64,000 nt of DNA from a virus (lineage: Duplodnaviria > Heunggongvirae > Uroviricota > Caudoviricetes), in IMG/VR virus record IMGVR_UViG_2718218305_000006; one strand, written 5' to 3'. Position 1 is the first letter of the stretch. Each line of letters starts with the position of its first letter. The position numbers are program-made. Shown here piece after piece: positions 60,001 through 64,000 of the stretch.

Positions 60001-63000
60001 CTCAGCCAGCAGGTGCTGCGTTACCAGTCCGGGAAGCCGCAACACAGGAAGAAAATAAAACAGAAACTGTGGCGGTCACAGTGCAGTCACAGCCGTTGTT
60101 CACCAGAAAACATCCGGATGGTCTGATTTTACCATCGCTGCATGTGGCTAACCGCGAGCTGCGCCGGGCAAAAGGTCAGGTTCAGAAGTGGGAGCGTGTC
60201 TGCGCCGCGCTGCGGGAGCTGAACAAGCACCGGGATATTGTTCGGCAGATTGTCGATTCATCCGGTCGTATTGTGTCGGAAAAGTGATTGCCGGAGGCGC
60301 TTATGGCGAAACCTTTTACACACGAACAGCGTGAAGAACTGAAGGCCCGAATTATCGGGCTGGTACGCAAAAATGAACGCATGACGATATCACAACTGGA
60401 GAGAGCGACGGGAGCAGGCTGGCATTCAGTCAGACGTTGCCTTGTGGATGTACTGGCTTGTGGCGATTTATACATGCCCGGTAAATACGGTGTTTTTGCA
60501 TCAGAACAGGTGTATCGCGTATGGCGTAAGGCAGCGGAGAAAACAACCGACCAGACATTGATTCGAAAGTTACCAGACGGAGAAATACGCCGCTATGACA
60601 GGCATCAGAACATAATTTGCAGTGAGTGCCGAAATAGCGAAGTTATGCAGCGTGTACTGGCGTTCTGTCAGGGGAATTTTTAGGAGGTGGTGCTGTGAGT
60701 GAAATTAGCTATCAGGCTTCAATTGCCGCTGGCATTCGCATCAAAGGAGAGGTGCATGGAAATAAAACCAGAAGATGAGTTAAGTAATATTGTTTTATTT
60801 CCGGTAAAAGAGGATGACCCACGTAATCAGGTTAATTTTCTTTATGAGCCATCGGAAAGACCATATTGCCATCACGCCTCTGTCCGGGTTGACGAAAAAG
60901 AGCGTCAGGTCCGCTGTAAAATCTGCGGTGCAGTTGTGGAGCCATTTGACTGGATGCTCTCTGTGGCGAAAAGAGAAACCAGACTGGCAGATGATGTAAG
61001 GCTCTTGCGTCAGGAGGAGCGGGAAAGGCGAAAAAATATAGAAAAGCTAATTCAGATTGAGCGTAACGCGAAAGCGCGGATACGCAGGGCGACAAAATCC
61101 AGAACTGAATAATTAAATTTAGCTCTGTTAAAAATTTAATCCTTAACCGGAGGGGGGGGGGGAGGCGCCCTCAGAACATCAGGAGGCTGTCCGGCAGGGC
61201 GGTAGTTAAATGCGAAAGTTCAAAATAATTATTGAAACGGGAATAGCCGGTGGAGATTTCGAGGATGAATTCGAAGTGGATGATGATGCGACGCCTGATG
61301 AAATACATGACGAAGCAAAAGATATTTTCTTTAACTACTGCAATTACTCATATCACGAAATAAAAGACGAAGAGGAAGAATAAAATGGCTGATTTTGCTT
61401 CAACTAAATATAACGCCAATTTTGAAGAATGGCATGAACTGTTAATGGACTATGTAGAGTTACCGCGGTGGAAGCATGGCGTGATATGAAGTTGCATAAG
61501 AAGTTGCTTTCTTTATCTGGAAATAATATATCCTCTAACGGGAAAGAAATAGAAAATGGTGACTTTAATGAACCCAACCCCCAATAAAAAGAGGTTGGGA
61601 ATACTATGGTTAAATTAGAGTAAATATCTTGGATATCTAAAATTAGGTTACTTTTACGCCTATAAAGGTGTAATCATCCATTATGTTTTTCTCAATCCTT
61701 TTTCTTAAACTACTCGCAAAAGCTGTTGGTGAGAGCATTGTCTTCTCAGAAAACCTTGGTCTGACATCCCAATGCTTATAGGCACCATCAGTCATTGCAT
61801 AGAGTTGAAGATAGCCATTATAAATTAGCTGGCTAATCGGAAAAGACATTAACTCAAAATTCAAATCCGTTGTATTTGATAAAGCATTCGTTAGGACTGA
61901 AGATAGCCGTTCTTTATGATTTCTTAAATTACGTAATTTATGTTCACCAGAATCAAGGAGTTCTTGATATCTCGTTTGATCAGTGGTTAACTGATTTAGT
62001 TTATTGTTTTTATTGAAGTATACTCGGCAATCACCGGAATGACCAATTAACACTTCATTTTTTTTGATCTGAACAATTGTTAAGGTTGTGGCAGTGCTAA
62101 TATCTAAATTGTCAATTTCTTTTTTAGCTGAATGAAATGCACTTTCAATTGAGAAAAAGGAAGTGCCTAGCGTGTGTCTAATGCCACGAATGGCTGCATG
62201 AGATGCAAGCATTGAATGTTCAGAGGAACCAACCCCATCAGCTACTGCAAAGACAATGTTAAAATCGCTATCAAAAGATGGCGGTAAATAAAAGTCTTCA
62301 TTTTCTTTTTTTTGGGGTTGTTTTAGGCTAAAACATGCCATTTCAATTATGTTCTTCATGATTTACCTCCCCCGTCACTTTTAAAAAATCTTCCAGTAAC
62401 TCCCGTGTGCTTTGATATCGTTCTTCAGGCCAATGTGCGCAACATTTTGCAATCAATCTTTTTAATTTTTCACTTCTTTCTGTGGGATATATATCAGTGA
62501 TAATTTTACCTGCTGCAAATATGTCACTTTGAAAAGAAAAAAGACCGCTATCATGTATTTCGGGCGCTCGATATCCATCTGTGCCCATGTGATTAGGCTT
62601 AAATTTTGTTTTGATTTCGGCCCGTAAGGTATCTCTGTCTTTTACTAGACCAAAATCAGATATTTTATACTTTCCATCGGCATAATAAAGTATGTTTCCT
62701 GGTTTTAAATCACGATGTATATAGTTGTTTTCATGTATGGTGATAATTCCTTTTAAAATCTGAGTAACAGCAGACTTCCTCTCCGCGTAGTTCATACCAT
62801 TGCGGATGGCTTCATATAAGTTACACTCTGCCAATTCCATAACAAAATAAGGTTTATCACCATTTGTATTAAATAAAACTATTGGCGCTATTGAATCATA
62901 GTTTATTCTATTGAGAGTGCATTGTGTTTTGATCTCAACTAAAAAACGCTGTCTTAAATCAGTCAACTCTTTTATAGCGGTCTTGTCAAAGTCCGGGCAA

Positions 63001-64000
63001 GGTGAAAAGTATTTGCGAGCATATGTGGTCATGTGGGTCTGGGTTAAGTTATAGACATCAACCTTAAATACTTCGCCAAAACTCCCTTGTCCTAAACTGC
63101 GACCATCTTTAAGTAAATAATTACCGCACCGATCCACGGCGCCCCCTTAACTCTCAGTAATGGATTGATAAGACTGGAAAAACATGCATTACCTCCTTTT
63201 ATACACGTTTGCTATTTTTATTGCAATGCCTCACCTGTGGGCACTTAGAAAGGTGAGATTCTGATGAGTCTTTAACTGATTGAATTCGTTCCAATGTGGG
63301 AATCCCACATCGGGAGAACATTACCAATAGGGATAAAAACGATTTGTGGGAAAAGGGGAGTTAAGTAAAATTGCTGCGGGTGCTTGAGGCTATCTGTCTC
63401 AGGCATGAACACCAAAAGGCAGATAGAGAAAAGCCCCAGTTAACATTACGCGTCCGGCAAGACGCTTAACATTAATCTGAGGCCATATCTATGCTCTACA
63501 CACGTAGGTTAGCCTCTTACGTGCCGAAAGGCAAGGAGAAGCAGGCTATGAAGCAGTAAAAGGCGATGCTAATCGCCCTGATCGTCATCTGTTTAACCGT
63601 CATTGTGACGGCACTGGTAACGAGGAAAGACCTCTGCGAGGTACGAATCCGAACCGGCCAGACGGAGGTCGCTGTCTTCACAGCTTACGAACCTGAGGAG
63701 TAAGAGACCTGGCGGGGGAGAAATCCCTCGCCACCTCTGATGTGTCAGGCATCCTCAACGCACCCCACTTAACTCGCTTCGGCGGTTTTTTGTTGTTTAT
63801 TTTCGGTGAGCGTGATGCATCTGGTTGTACCGATGTGGCTGGCTGATTCTGTTATTCAGGTGGTTTATTGCTGTTGATTGGCATGTCTTCACGGCTAGAA
63901 TCGAGGCTCTTAAGTAGCGCGCAGGGATAAGAGGGATGGCCCCCATAAGGGGAGGTGTTTATAGTTCATGGGATTTTTGTTATGAACGATAAGGAATTAA

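Follow-up and report, generated by a model that had tools for sequence, protein, structure and literature searches.

A mobile kinase–phosphatase gene pair in an accessory slot of a lambdoid prophage, a candidate two-gene anti-phage switch

Introduction

The closest described system is KKP (Guo et al., Nat Commun 2024; PMC11341870), a prophage kinase–phosphatase module that acts as both a toxin–antitoxin and an anti-phage system and is triggered by inhibition of its phosphatase. KKP is found in Pf6, P2, P4 and Mu-like prophages, and its phosphatase PfpC is inhibited by Gp59 of phage T4 (PMC11341870). Neither of its kinases is toxic when alone, and according to its authors the fusion of the kinase PfkA to a cold-shock domain (CSD) may define the system (PMC11341870). 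Further precedents, going by the titles listed in Rousset 2022, are Stk of phage 933W (Friedman et al. 2011) and Stk2 (Depardieu et al. 2016); the title of Friedman et al. 2011 names 933W Stk a tyrosine kinase. Here, we describe a kinase–phosphatase gene pair in IMG/VR virus record IMGVR_UViG_2718218305_000006, and compare it with these and other systems. The whole stretch of DNA that was analysed, 64,000 nucleotides in length, is referred to as the window.

Results

The features of the locus are listed in Table 1. The kinase is a bare kinase domain, with a Pkinase (PF00069) score of 110.3 bits (1.4e-31; cutoff 31.7). The domain starts at residue 11, and the Pfam search up to the protein end at residue 264 returned kinase-family models as the sole domains, with no accessory domain and no PASTA domain, while a scan of the protein sequence gave no hydrophobic or transmembrane segment. 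The Hanks residues comprise the glycine loop G16/G18/G21, K42, E68, H141-R-D143-L-K-x-x-N148, D161-F-G163, A191-P-E193, D205 and R240, all of them invariant or nearly so across the family in alignments of 14 and 48 sequences. The AlphaFold2 model (pLDDT 90.2), in which disorder is limited to the activation loop (residues 171–178) and the C-terminal tip, adopts a bilobal kinase fold with Foldseek TM scores of 0.72–0.78 to the kinase domains of FGFR2, RET and CDK2. The top Foldseek matches of the model are tyrosine kinases, and the HRDLKPGN loop is a Ser/Thr-type signature. The assignment of GTG as the start codon is supported by the N-terminus MDRCGNY, which is kept in homologues, together with the upstream AAGGGGG. 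With every catalytic residue kept and a confident full-length fold, the kinase looks active.

Table 1. Coordinates of the kinase–phosphatase cassette and its flanking genes in the window
Feature	Position	Strand	Basis
Mobile cassette: promoter, UTR, kinase and PP2C; ~1.59 kb, 36% GC	61643..63229	minus	
Putative cassette promoter: -35 TTGCAA (63226-63221), 17-nt spacer, -10 TATAAA (63203-63198)	63198..63226	minus	Sequence read
5' UTR, ~55 nt	63138..63191	minus	Alignments; conserved among E. coli alleles
Shine-Dalgarno AAGGGGG of the kinase GTG	63142..63148	minus	Sequence read; kept in the 92% and P4 alleles
Kinase gene, starting at GTG: Hanks-type (eukaryote-like) protein kinase of 264 aa, putatively Ser/Thr-specific	62343..63137	minus	ORF and Pfam
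Shine-Dalgarno GGGGGAGG of PP2C, inside the kinase coding sequence	62366..62373	minus	Sequence read
Overlap of kinase 3' end and PP2C start, 17 nt, ATGAAGAACATAATTGA	62343..62359	minus	Sequence read
PPM/PP2C-type Ser/Thr phosphatase, 238 aa, ATG start	61643..62359	minus	ORF and Pfam
A8 homopolymer tract in the PP2C gene, nt 47-54	62306..62313	minus	1-nt deletions here in other genomes
Second A8 tract in the PP2C gene, nt 295-302	62058..62065	minus	1-nt deletion here in locus L033
DUF7167 phage gene, replication-side slot edge, outside the cassette	61210..61383	plus	Pfam DUF7167, 7e-15
hok/sok type I toxin–antitoxin locus, other slot edge, outside the cassette	63378..63703	plus	Rfam and ORF

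The phosphatase is matched by PP2C_2 (PF13672) with 41.5 bits (1.4e-10; cutoff 24), and PF00481 stays below its cutoff (17.6 versus 20.3). Its metal-binding and catalytic residues D22, D41-G42, G109-D110, D191-G192 and D228-D229 are the same in all 57 sequences compared. The model (AlphaFold2 pLDDT 93) forms a whole-chain PPM β-sandwich that matches MsPP (2jfs), PstP (1txo), tPphA and Stp1 with a Foldseek E of ~1e-13 and TM scores of 0.71–0.78. Given the full set of catalytic residues and the confident full-length fold, this enzyme also looks active. Both gene calls of the first-pass annotation, a 264-aa kinase with all canonical Hanks motifs and a 238-aa PP2C-type phosphatase, are therefore borne out, and the structure prediction it had proposed as a check gave full-length folds for both proteins.

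The ATG of the PP2C gene falls within the last codons of the kinase gene, and the overlap first reported as 17 nt proved to be exact. In all ten compared loci, which come from different genera and phages, the junction lies between -17 and +3 nt, and most of them have a purine-rich Shine-Dalgarno sequence 5' of the PP2C ATG. This arrangement supports the translational coupling of the two genes stated in the first pass. In strain ETEC1730, a 1-nt deletion at the first A8 tract shifts the PP2C frame and leaves the kinase intact; in the IMG/VR locus L033, both A8 tracts carry deletions with the same outcome. The matches H94 and H95 are likewise 1 nt shorter, as judged by match length and not by indel position, and ETEC1717 and ETEC1718 probably also combine a frameshifted PP2C with an intact kinase. 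These frameshifts may be homopolymer assembly errors; if they are real, the kinase is non-lethal without the phosphatase at native expression. Conversely, the kinase is disrupted in the loci L084 and L041.

A copy of the pair in a P4 satellite is homologous from ~63229 to the PP2C stop codon with unrelated flanks, and because the homology ends at both edges, it delimits a cassette of ~1.6 kb. The promoter hexamers and their 17-nt spacing are kept in that copy, beyond which the flanks are unrelated. The consensus promoter scan did not list this putative promoter because its -10 hexamer ends in A; judged from its sequence, it would drive the cassette. A small hairpin (63142-63126) spans the GTG start of the kinase. 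As the fold of the 5' UTR is no better than that of shuffled sequences (z = -0.2) and is not kept outside E. coli, we claim no RNA element there. The composition of the pair is AT-rich and foreign, with a GC content of 0.34–0.38 over the two genes versus ~0.5 in the flanks, and 0.361 over the cassette versus 0.51 for the whole window. Loci of the pair elsewhere have a GC content of 0.30–0.43 in all that were sampled, across seven genera.

In prophage 2 of the window, an E. coli lambdoid prophage, the pair occupies a 36% GC block between the DUF7167 gene and hok/sok. Since the neighbouring phage genes read along the plus strand, the pair, as first annotated, lies on the opposite strand in an AT-rich block, antisense to the early operon of the prophage. 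The sok element (RF01794) scores 117 bits at 63378-63553 in Rfam and is followed by a Hok ORF at 63566-63703, which carries the annotation hokD in related genomes. The DUF7167 neighbour is also present in O103:H2, AREA_497, ETEC1703 and eight IMG/VR loci. Prophage 1 of the same window has the same frame, made up of a DUF1627 gene (8851-9582) and hok (11557-11691), but what it carries there, at 10445-11203, is another gene, encoding a 252-aa periplasmic binding protein (SBP_bac_11). The same frame with other cargo indicates that the slot is variable, in agreement with the variable island described in the first pass.

Among 5,426 complete E. coli genomes, 35 have the pair, with both genes every time. 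The at-least-99% allele is enriched in the STEC serotypes O145:H28, O103:H2, O157:H7, O45:H2 and O121, and the family extends through the Gammaproteobacteria, including Vibrio, Aeromonas, Acinetobacter, Xenorhabdus and Dickeya. Of 63 viral contigs with a family kinase, all 63 have a PP2C gene immediately 3' of it in the same orientation, compared to none of 17 with generic kinases; the PP2C gene is also directly 3' of the kinase in each of the bacterial contexts sampled. Moreover, kinase and PP2C identities drop in parallel, from 84/82% to 34/32%.

The family occupies several slots, namely hok–DUF7167, psu–int of P4, Rz–terS, Q–lysis, and a position downstream of cI. Family copies in P4 satellites sit in the psu–int slot, which is an antiviral hotspot of Rousset 2022 (PMC9122126). 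An Acinetobacter plasmid carries the pair adjoining Septu PtuA/PtuB, one locus lies beside a SIR2 candidate defence gene, and in chromosomal islets the pair is next to TacA/TacT and Phd/YafO toxin–antitoxin pairs. In Vibrio, it resides within a mobilisable island with an integrase and Mob_Pre, and small plasmids also carry it. Some phages carry the pair 3' of, and co-oriented with, a cI-like repressor gene, the position that rexAB and 933W stk also hold. Many family members are co-oriented within late operons, whereas all the examined lambdoid copies of the at-least-99% and 92% E. coli alleles are antisense to early/late transcription. Altogether, the pair is a self-contained accessory cassette (a “moron”) that moves horizontally and is carried by temperate phages, satellites and small plasmids.

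Discussion

The pair is best read as a phosphatase-gated kinase for phage exclusion or abortive infection. It most likely constitutes a phosphorylation-based anti-phage switch of the superinfection-exclusion or abortive-infection type, a function to which we assign middling confidence, and such a switch is most likely related to KKP in logic, not in ancestry or architecture. The argument is one of guilt by association over about a dozen contexts. The psu–int slot of P4, Septu, the toxin–antitoxin neighbours and the moron slots agree with the initial view of a kinase and its dedicated phosphatase in a mobile or defence setting.

In a lysogen, the pair would be transcribed independently of the lytic promoters, and its placement antisense to the early operon fits expression in this state. 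The PP2C, with a strong Shine-Dalgarno sequence and an ATG, would be made together with the kinase and its often weak GTG start, and would keep stripping phosphate from the kinase itself and from its substrates, holding this RD-type kinase off. Infection by a heterologous phage might then tip the balance through a phage protein that inhibits the phosphatase, comparable to the effect of T4 Gp59 on PfpC; alternatively, the kinase might be activated directly, as in 933W Stk and Stk2. The freed kinase would phosphorylate host and/or phage proteins and block phage production or cell growth. More tentatively, the pair may represent an unrecognised minimal two-component anti-phage system that arose independently of KKP, the bare kinase being both switch and effector and the coupled phosphatase a guard disabled by phage proteins. 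Such a system would spread through lambdoid phages, P4 satellites and plasmids as a 1.6-kb cassette with its own promoter, entering no fewer than five of their accessory slots, and slippage at the two A8 tracts could phase-switch its arming.

The pair might instead be a prophage–host regulatory module, in which the two opposing enzymes would determine how far host nucleoid or regulatory proteins are phosphorylated and thereby tune prophage induction, foreign-DNA silencing or host stress responses. This explanation is credible though unlikely. Its precedent is KKP, which steers Pf lysogeny via phosphorylation of MvaU (PMC11341870), and it would suit the copies downstream of a cI-like repressor, the graded regulation that a reversible enzyme pair allows, and the tolerance of PP2C frameshifts beside an intact kinase. 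However, small plasmids, the mobilisable island and chromosomal islets carry the pair with no prophage to regulate, and its movement among unrelated phage types and slots argues against wiring into one phage circuit; as both roles coexist in KKP, a regulatory role may be additional and not exclusive. Carriage by P4 satellites, plasmids and non-phage islands also speaks against a quite improbable lytic-cycle role in host takeover or counter-defence, resembling T7 gp0.7, with the kinase reprogramming or disarming the host and the phosphatase limiting or timing the effect. The many copies co-oriented with late genes (Rz–terS, Q–lysis), where late-promoter readthrough is possible, would fit that role. 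Nevertheless, these two slots are classic sites of lysogen-expressed morons (lambda bor, stx), and the window pair, like the examined copies of the two E. coli alleles, runs against the lytic direction.

Strict two-gene linkage with coupled translation, the weak GTG of the kinase against the ATG of PP2C, carriage on plasmids and prophages, toxin–antitoxin neighbours elsewhere and hok/sok here, and the example of KKP would all be compatible with pure addiction, namely a type VII-like toxin–antitoxin that prevents loss of the mobile element, with the kinase as toxin and the PP2C as enzymatic antitoxin. Even so, we consider it less probable again, given the PP2C frameshifts with intact kinase in ETEC1730 (probably ETEC1717 and ETEC1718) and L033, if these are not assembly errors. 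Moreover, the kinase-disrupted loci balance the PP2C losses and leave no bias towards antitoxin retention, the gene order is toxin-first with nothing pointing to differential stability, and neither KKP kinase is toxic alone (PMC11341870). Of the toxin/antitoxin-like or trigger/reset pair envisaged in the first-pass annotation, the idea of a restrained kinase stands, whereas a strict toxin–antitoxin is weakened by these frameshifts. Prophages of STEC strains often carry T3SS effectors, and the STEC enrichment of the at-least-99% allele could suggest a secreted virulence effector pair, with an NleH/OspG-like kinase delivered to host cells; this is highly improbable. The kinase domain begins at residue 11 (first placed at ~15) and leaves no N-terminal secretion region of the NleH/OspG type, the family reaches beyond T3SS pathogens into Vibrio, Aeromonas, Acinetobacter, Xenorhabdus, Dickeya, P4 satellites and plasmids, and the obligatory PP2C partner is without parallel among NleH/OspG effectors. 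By both structure and sequence, the kinase is closest to generic kinases and not to NleH/OspG, and membership of the NleH/OspG group is rejected on the domain start and the spread of the family.

Comparison with known systems

The housekeeping pairs Stp1/Stk1 (PrpC/PrkC, PstP/PknB) likewise combine an adjacent antagonistic PP2C and Hanks kinase, and PstP, MsPP, tPphA and Stp1 are the best structural matches of the PP2C described here. They differ in being core-genomic, whereas the present pair is mobile, rare, AT-rich and without a PASTA or transmembrane sensor; their gene order is opposite to kinase-then-PP2C. On the NCBIfam equivalogs of the housekeeping pair, the kinase scores 88.9 versus 450 bits and the PP2C 68 versus 230 bits, and membership is rejected on these scores far below the cutoffs together with the lack of PASTA and transmembrane segments. 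The TerY-P triad, reportedly a defence system (Gao et al. 2020) made up of the TerY vWA protein, a PP2C and a Ser/Thr kinase, shares the PP2C and Hanks kinase. No TerY/vWA gene is adjacent in the window or at any homologous locus examined, the neighbours here being DUF7167 and hok/sok, and the pair is not assigned to TerY-P.

Stk2 (Staphylococcus), PD-T4-6 (E. coli; Vassallo 2022) and mad6 of MADS resemble the pair in employing a Hanks kinase as defence effector, but lack a coupled phosphatase, and extra regions are implied by the greater length of their profiles (292–659 positions). The defence-database check proposed in the first pass did return PADLOC matches of the kinase to mad6 (1e-37), PD-T4-6 (1e-32) and Stk2 (3e-25). 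However, the same profiles score a KKP PfkA-like kinase and 933W Stk higher, and the matches appear generic, reflecting the common kinase core; no model in the PADLOC library matches even the KKP phosphatase. The PP2C partner at 63 of 63 viral loci and the lack of MADS genes nearby exclude a stand-alone kinase (PD-T4-6, Stk2) or a part of MADS. Stk of 933W (AAD25427) is also a eukaryote-type kinase of a lambdoid STEC prophage, it shares the PHROG phrog_2361, and some members of the pair family hold the same post-cI position. By contrast, it is 348 aa long compared to 264 aa here and belongs to the cI/pM operon, where its gene is flanked by cI and the putative tM terminator; a phosphatase partner is lacking. 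The two kinases align at 27% identity over residues 104–258, that is, the C-lobe only, with the N-lobe unaligned. The kinship to 933W Stk raised in the first pass is therefore reduced to remote homology, and orthology is rejected.

Like the present pair, KKP unites Hanks kinase(s) and a PP2C in one operon borne by prophages and satellites and found in P2/P4 hotspots, and the two likely share a logic in which the phosphatase restrains the kinase until a phage trigger frees it. Like KKP, the pair is carried by mobile elements, here comprising lambdoid prophages and other temperate phages, P4 satellites, plasmids and a mobilisable island. Their architectures differ. KKP is a three-gene operon that opens with PP2C, followed by kinase (FHA) and then kinase (CSD), whereas the order here is kinase then PP2C at all loci; KKP requires both kinases and their C-terminal domains, whereas the pair has one bare 264-aa kinase, with no CSD, no FHA match and no second kinase among the Pfam hits and ORFs at the window pair. 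The KKP phosphatase is ~360 aa long with a C-terminal extension, compared to 238 aa here. Against the KKP trio of E. coli E1167, identity is 30–33% in the kinase core and 25% for PP2C (E = 0.003). The single bare kinase, the opposite gene order and these identities of 25–33% lead us to reject membership of KKP. We found no characterisation of the two-gene kinase–PP2C family in the searchable literature. The first-pass description of a novel system was nonetheless overstated, as KKP had been published in 2024 (PMC11341870); what holds is that the pair is a distinct two-gene variant of the published KKP logic, and not a new kind of system.

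Gene structure of the kinase-phosphatase pair

ORF calling placed the kinase gene and the downstream PP2C gene on the minus strand of prophage 2, in agreement with the first-pass annotation. The two genes overlap by 17 nt (ATGAAGAACATAATTGA), and the PP2C ATG lies within the last kinase codons, behind a GGGGGAGG Shine-Dalgarno sequence. The GTG start of the kinase is sound, because AAGGGGG precedes it and the N-terminus MDRCGNY is kept among the aligned homologues. The GC content is 0.34-0.38 over the pair compared to ~0.5 in the flanking DNA, and 0.361 over the complete cassette compared to 0.51 for the entire window. 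The neighbouring O-like, DnaC-like, DUF1627, DUF977 and DUF7167 phage genes lie on the plus strand together with hok, as does a gene for a 137-aa protein with a weak zinc-ribbon match under the cutoff. Two small ORFs, read by eye and absent from the ORF-tool output, are found 3' of the DUF7167 gene; the first (MADFASTKYN...) appears to overlap DNA that matches, at 88-95%, "hypothetical protein" genes of many Stx and other coliphages. A hairpin (CCCAACC...GGTTGGG) lies between these ORFs and the PP2C stop codon.

Coordinates of the features discussed (window positions unless a homologous locus is named)
Feature	Position	Strand	Remarks
Kinase gene	62343-63137	-	264 aa, GTG start, ORF
PP2C gene	61643-62359	-	238 aa, ATG start, ORF
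A8 tracts in PP2C gene	62306-62313; 62058-62065	-	
Putative promoter	63226-63198		TTGCAA-17 nt-TATAAA
Upstream ORF	63147-63185	-	12 codons, MFFQSYQSITES
Palindrome	63295-63309		15 bp, perfect, TGTGGGAATCCCACA
sok/hok	63378-63553		Rfam
Small ORFs	61386-61588	+	34 and 33 aa
Coliphage-matching DNA	61400-61474		
Hairpin	about 61570-61600		
DUF1627 gene, prophage 1	8851-9582		
ORF fragments, prophage 1	9715-10193		
SBP_bac_11 gene, prophage 1	10445-11203	+	252 aa, 5.5e-34
hok, prophage 1	11557-11691		
Septu and kinase-PP2C block, L027	2734-6528		Acinetobacter plasmid
Split kinase gene, L084	6001-6768		UViG_2836755666_000021
DUF4760 gene, L021-L023	8590-9237		Aeromonas

The limits of the cassette were defined by aligning the window locus against the 80%-identical copy of a P4-like satellite. 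The homology runs from ~63229 exactly to the PP2C stop codon, and the DNA beyond is unrelated; the mobile unit is therefore a ~1.6-kb cassette that includes a promoter-like site. This site, common to both copies and followed by a conserved UTR of ~55 nt, is the putative cassette promoter, as inferred from its sequence; in a consensus scan for promoters and terminators, the site count was not above that of shuffled sequences. The short upstream ORF has a strong AAGGAGGT Shine-Dalgarno sequence and stops 9 nt ahead of the kinase GTG. We rejected it as a leader peptide: it is probably non-functional, because its frame is not kept in the P4 allele and the putative transcript start falls within its Shine-Dalgarno sequence. 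A regulatory hairpin in the RNA around the GTG start was also rejected, as the fold does not surpass that of shuffles (z = -0.2) and is unconserved outside E. coli. The spacer between the putative promoter and sok/hok contains a perfect palindrome just beyond the DNA common to the P4 copy, which could be a protein-binding site.

Structural features of the kinase and the phosphatase

Profile searches and structure prediction bore out both folds proposed in the first-pass annotation. The kinase scores 110 bits against Pfam Pkinase (cutoff 31.7), and its G-loop, K42, E68, HRDLKxxN, DFG, APE, D205 and R240 are kept in alignments of 14 and 48 homologues. Its AlphaFold model has high confidence (pLDDT 90.2), with disorder limited to the activation loop (residues 171-178) and the C-terminal tip, and resembles eukaryotic kinase domains with TM-scores of 0.72-0.78. 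The phosphatase scores 41.5 bits against PP2C_2 (cutoff 24), and residues D22, D41-G42, G109-D110, D191-G192 and D228-D229 are kept in alignments of 14 and 57 homologues. Its model (pLDDT 93) matches the bacterial PPM phosphatases MsPP, PstP, tPphA and Stp1 over the full length, with TM-scores of 0.71-0.78, taking in the C-terminal half left unaligned by Pfam. Sequence and domain searches found no hydrophobic segment or accessory domain in either protein. Both enzymes look catalytically competent. In addition, PP2C aligns to positions 273-517 of the 565-position profile phrog_5650, a profile length suggestive of longer or fused proteins in some phages; none of 100 PP2C homologues was a kinase-PP2C fusion.

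Distribution and obligate pairing

The pair is present in 35 of 5,426 complete E. coli genomes, and every carrier has both genes. The allele of at least 99% identity accounts for 29 genomes, mostly STEC serotypes plus pig ETEC; an allele of about 92% is found in four (a lambdoid prophage in the one examined) and one of about 80% in two (a P4 satellite in the one examined). At the loci examined, the first two alleles occupy a single slot of lambdoid prophages, between DUF7167 and hokD, and the replication modules of these prophages differ. The examined 80% copy sits in the psu-int interval of the P4 satellite, and likewise the protein variant P0002 (84% identical).

More distant kinase homologues (~60% identity) come from Xenorhabdus, Photorhabdus, Enterobacter, Dickeya, Providencia, Vibrio, Photobacterium, Aeromonas and Acinetobacter, and all are bare proteins of 255-265 aa. 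PP2C homologues are distributed similarly, and the identities of both proteins fall in parallel. In all bacterial loci sampled, PP2C lies 3' of the kinase at -4 to +3 nt. An IMG/VR scan gave 80 kinase loci, comprising 63 of the family and 17 of generic or giant-virus kinases; PP2C is directly downstream on the same strand in 63/63 of the former versus 0/17 of the latter. Among ten loci compared, the kinase starts with GTG in six and PP2C with ATG in all, and every locus has a GC content of 0.30-0.43. No conserved third gene was found; the other downstream genes vary and have no PADLOC match. In Aeromonas alone, a gene for a DUF4760 membrane protein follows PP2C after 7 nt; this could be a third, optional component or simply an independent neighbour. 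DUF4760 also appears in the P2 hotspot lists of Rousset et al.

Genomic contexts

A neighbourhood survey found homologues repeatedly in defence and moron slots. The P4 psu-int locus carrying the pair, with a SIR2 candidate defence gene nearby, was shown to be an antiviral hotspot by Rousset et al. (2022, PMC9122126). On the 14-kb Acinetobacter baumannii plasmid NZ_CP121378.1, Septu PtuA (3e-127) and PtuB (1e-63) are encoded directly upstream of the pair; at locus L027, Septu and the kinase-PP2C genes, followed by a DUF1643 gene, make up a compact defence-like block of this small replicon. Moreover, the pair adjoins the toxin-antitoxin genes TacA/TacT in Enterobacter and Phd/YafO in Dickeya, and lies inside an integrase and Mob_Pre island in Vibrio.

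Among the homologous loci, the phage copies fall into four slots: between hok and DUF7167, antisense to the early operon (L028-L035); between Rz and terS (L037, L040, L051-L054, L091 and others) or between Q and lysis (L068, L075, L077-L079), co-oriented with the late genes; and downstream of a cI-like repressor, on its strand (L073, L081, L084). The Q-lysis slot is the stx site of Stx phages, the post-cI slot is the rexAB or 933W-stk position, and all four are classic sites for lysogen-expressed accessory genes. The first-pass annotation rightly described a variable cargo slot: in the same DUF1627/hok frame, prophage 1 holds the gene of an SBP_bac_11 periplasmic binding protein of the extracellular solute-binding family, with a signal peptide, which is atypical cargo in lambdoid prophages. 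Upstream of this gene are ORF fragments.

Disrupted copies and proposed function

The 717-nt PP2C gene contains two of the ten A8 tracts in the 64-kb window. In ETEC1730, a 1-nt deletion in the A8 at PP2C nt 47-54 truncates the phosphatase, and the kinase is identical to that of the window. The match in two further pig ETEC genomes, H94 and H95, is likewise 1 nt shorter. At the IMG/VR locus L033, both A8 tracts carry 1-nt deletions and the kinase is intact. Conversely, an internal stop splits the kinase of the post-cI locus L084 into 92 and 160 aa, with PP2C intact, and the L041 kinase is frameshifted close to its C-terminus. These disrupted copies may be homopolymer assembly errors; the A8 deletions could reflect phase variation or assembly error. 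If real, the PP2C frameshifts imply that cells survive native levels of the kinase on its own, as would fit a kinase requiring a prior trigger.

The pair comprises two antagonistic enzymes encoded by obligately coupled genes, on an autonomous cassette that recurs in defence and moron slots. We judge it an even call that it is a phosphatase-gated kinase for phage exclusion or abortive infection. The pair would be expressed in the lysogen, with PP2C keeping the RD-type kinase dephosphorylated; an infecting phage would release the kinase, which would then phosphorylate host and/or phage targets. The antisense placement uncouples the pair from lytic transcription, and a role in lytic-cycle takeover or counter-defence seems quite unlikely. 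A regulatory role for the prophage or the host is somewhat unlikely. A pure addiction module is distinctly improbable. The PP2C frameshifts beside an intact kinase, if real, weigh against the toxin-antitoxin reading of the first-pass annotation; with two lineages disrupted each way, there is no bias towards retaining the antidote. That the pair is a secreted effector is very improbable indeed.

Should the pair prove protective against phages, no simpler phosphorylation-based immune module would be known in Gram-negative bacteria: it consists of two small soluble enzymes without sensor domains, and would be a tractable model for infection sensing by kinase/phosphatase balance. Protection would also mean that kinase-phosphatase logic of the KKP (kinase-kinase-phosphatase) type arose more than once, and that in STEC lambdoid prophages it has a defined variable slot beside hok/sok. 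For STEC strains with many lambdoid prophages, the pair is an extra candidate for prophage-prophage or prophage-phage competition. It is minimal, widespread, easily tested and invisible to current defence annotation.

Comparison with known systems

PADLOC searches matched the kinase to mad6, PD-T4-6 and Stk2. These matches are non-discriminating: the KKP kinase and 933W Stk, run as controls, score higher on the same profiles. PP2C had no PADLOC match, which is uninformative because the KKP phosphatase is also unmatched by any model. Current profiles would label the kinase as generic PD-T4-6/mad6-like and miss the phosphatase; the family is thus likely to be mislabelled or passed over in genome surveys.

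Orthology with 933W Stk, a case that the first-pass annotation mentioned without confirming, was rejected, and the pair is in no useful sense related to that kinase. The two kinases share one PHROG and have 27% identity in the C-lobe only, and Stk (348 aa) is encoded in the cI/pM operon, a different slot, without a phosphatase. The 933W genes L0139/L0140 beside hokW are not counterparts either, as they encode Ead/Ea22 and DUF551 proteins. The pair scores far under the cutoffs of Stk1/Stp1-type equivalogs, and, unlike the TerY-P triad, has no TerY/vWA gene nearby.

Searches of the available literature retrieved no characterised two-gene kinase/PP2C defence system beyond KKP, and no mention of the two protein accessions. 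The hotspot catalogue of Rousset et al. includes a Pkinase + PP2C_2 arrangement, which is not among their cloned systems in the supplementary files searched. They also cloned, as pFR102, the "Phosphatase + kinase + kinase" trio of KKP type in the P2 hotspot of E. coli E1167; supplementary file 3 places it beside systems without detected activity according to their Methods (PMC9122126), whereas Guo et al. (2024, PMC11341870) report KKP modules to be protective. The pair is real, sharply defined and apparently uncharacterised as a two-gene family. The prophage kinase-phosphatase concept is already published, and kinases in defence are expected.

KKP is the closest published system, consisting of PP2C, an FHA-kinase and a CSD-kinase in that order in prophages and satellites (Guo et al. 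2024, PMC11341870). By comparison, the pair has one kinase, lacks CSD and FHA domains and has the reverse gene order. Direct comparison with the E. coli trio (Rousset 2022, supplementary file 3) gave only 25-33% identity and ruled out a trimmed KKP. The pair would resemble KKP in outline of action, without belonging to it.
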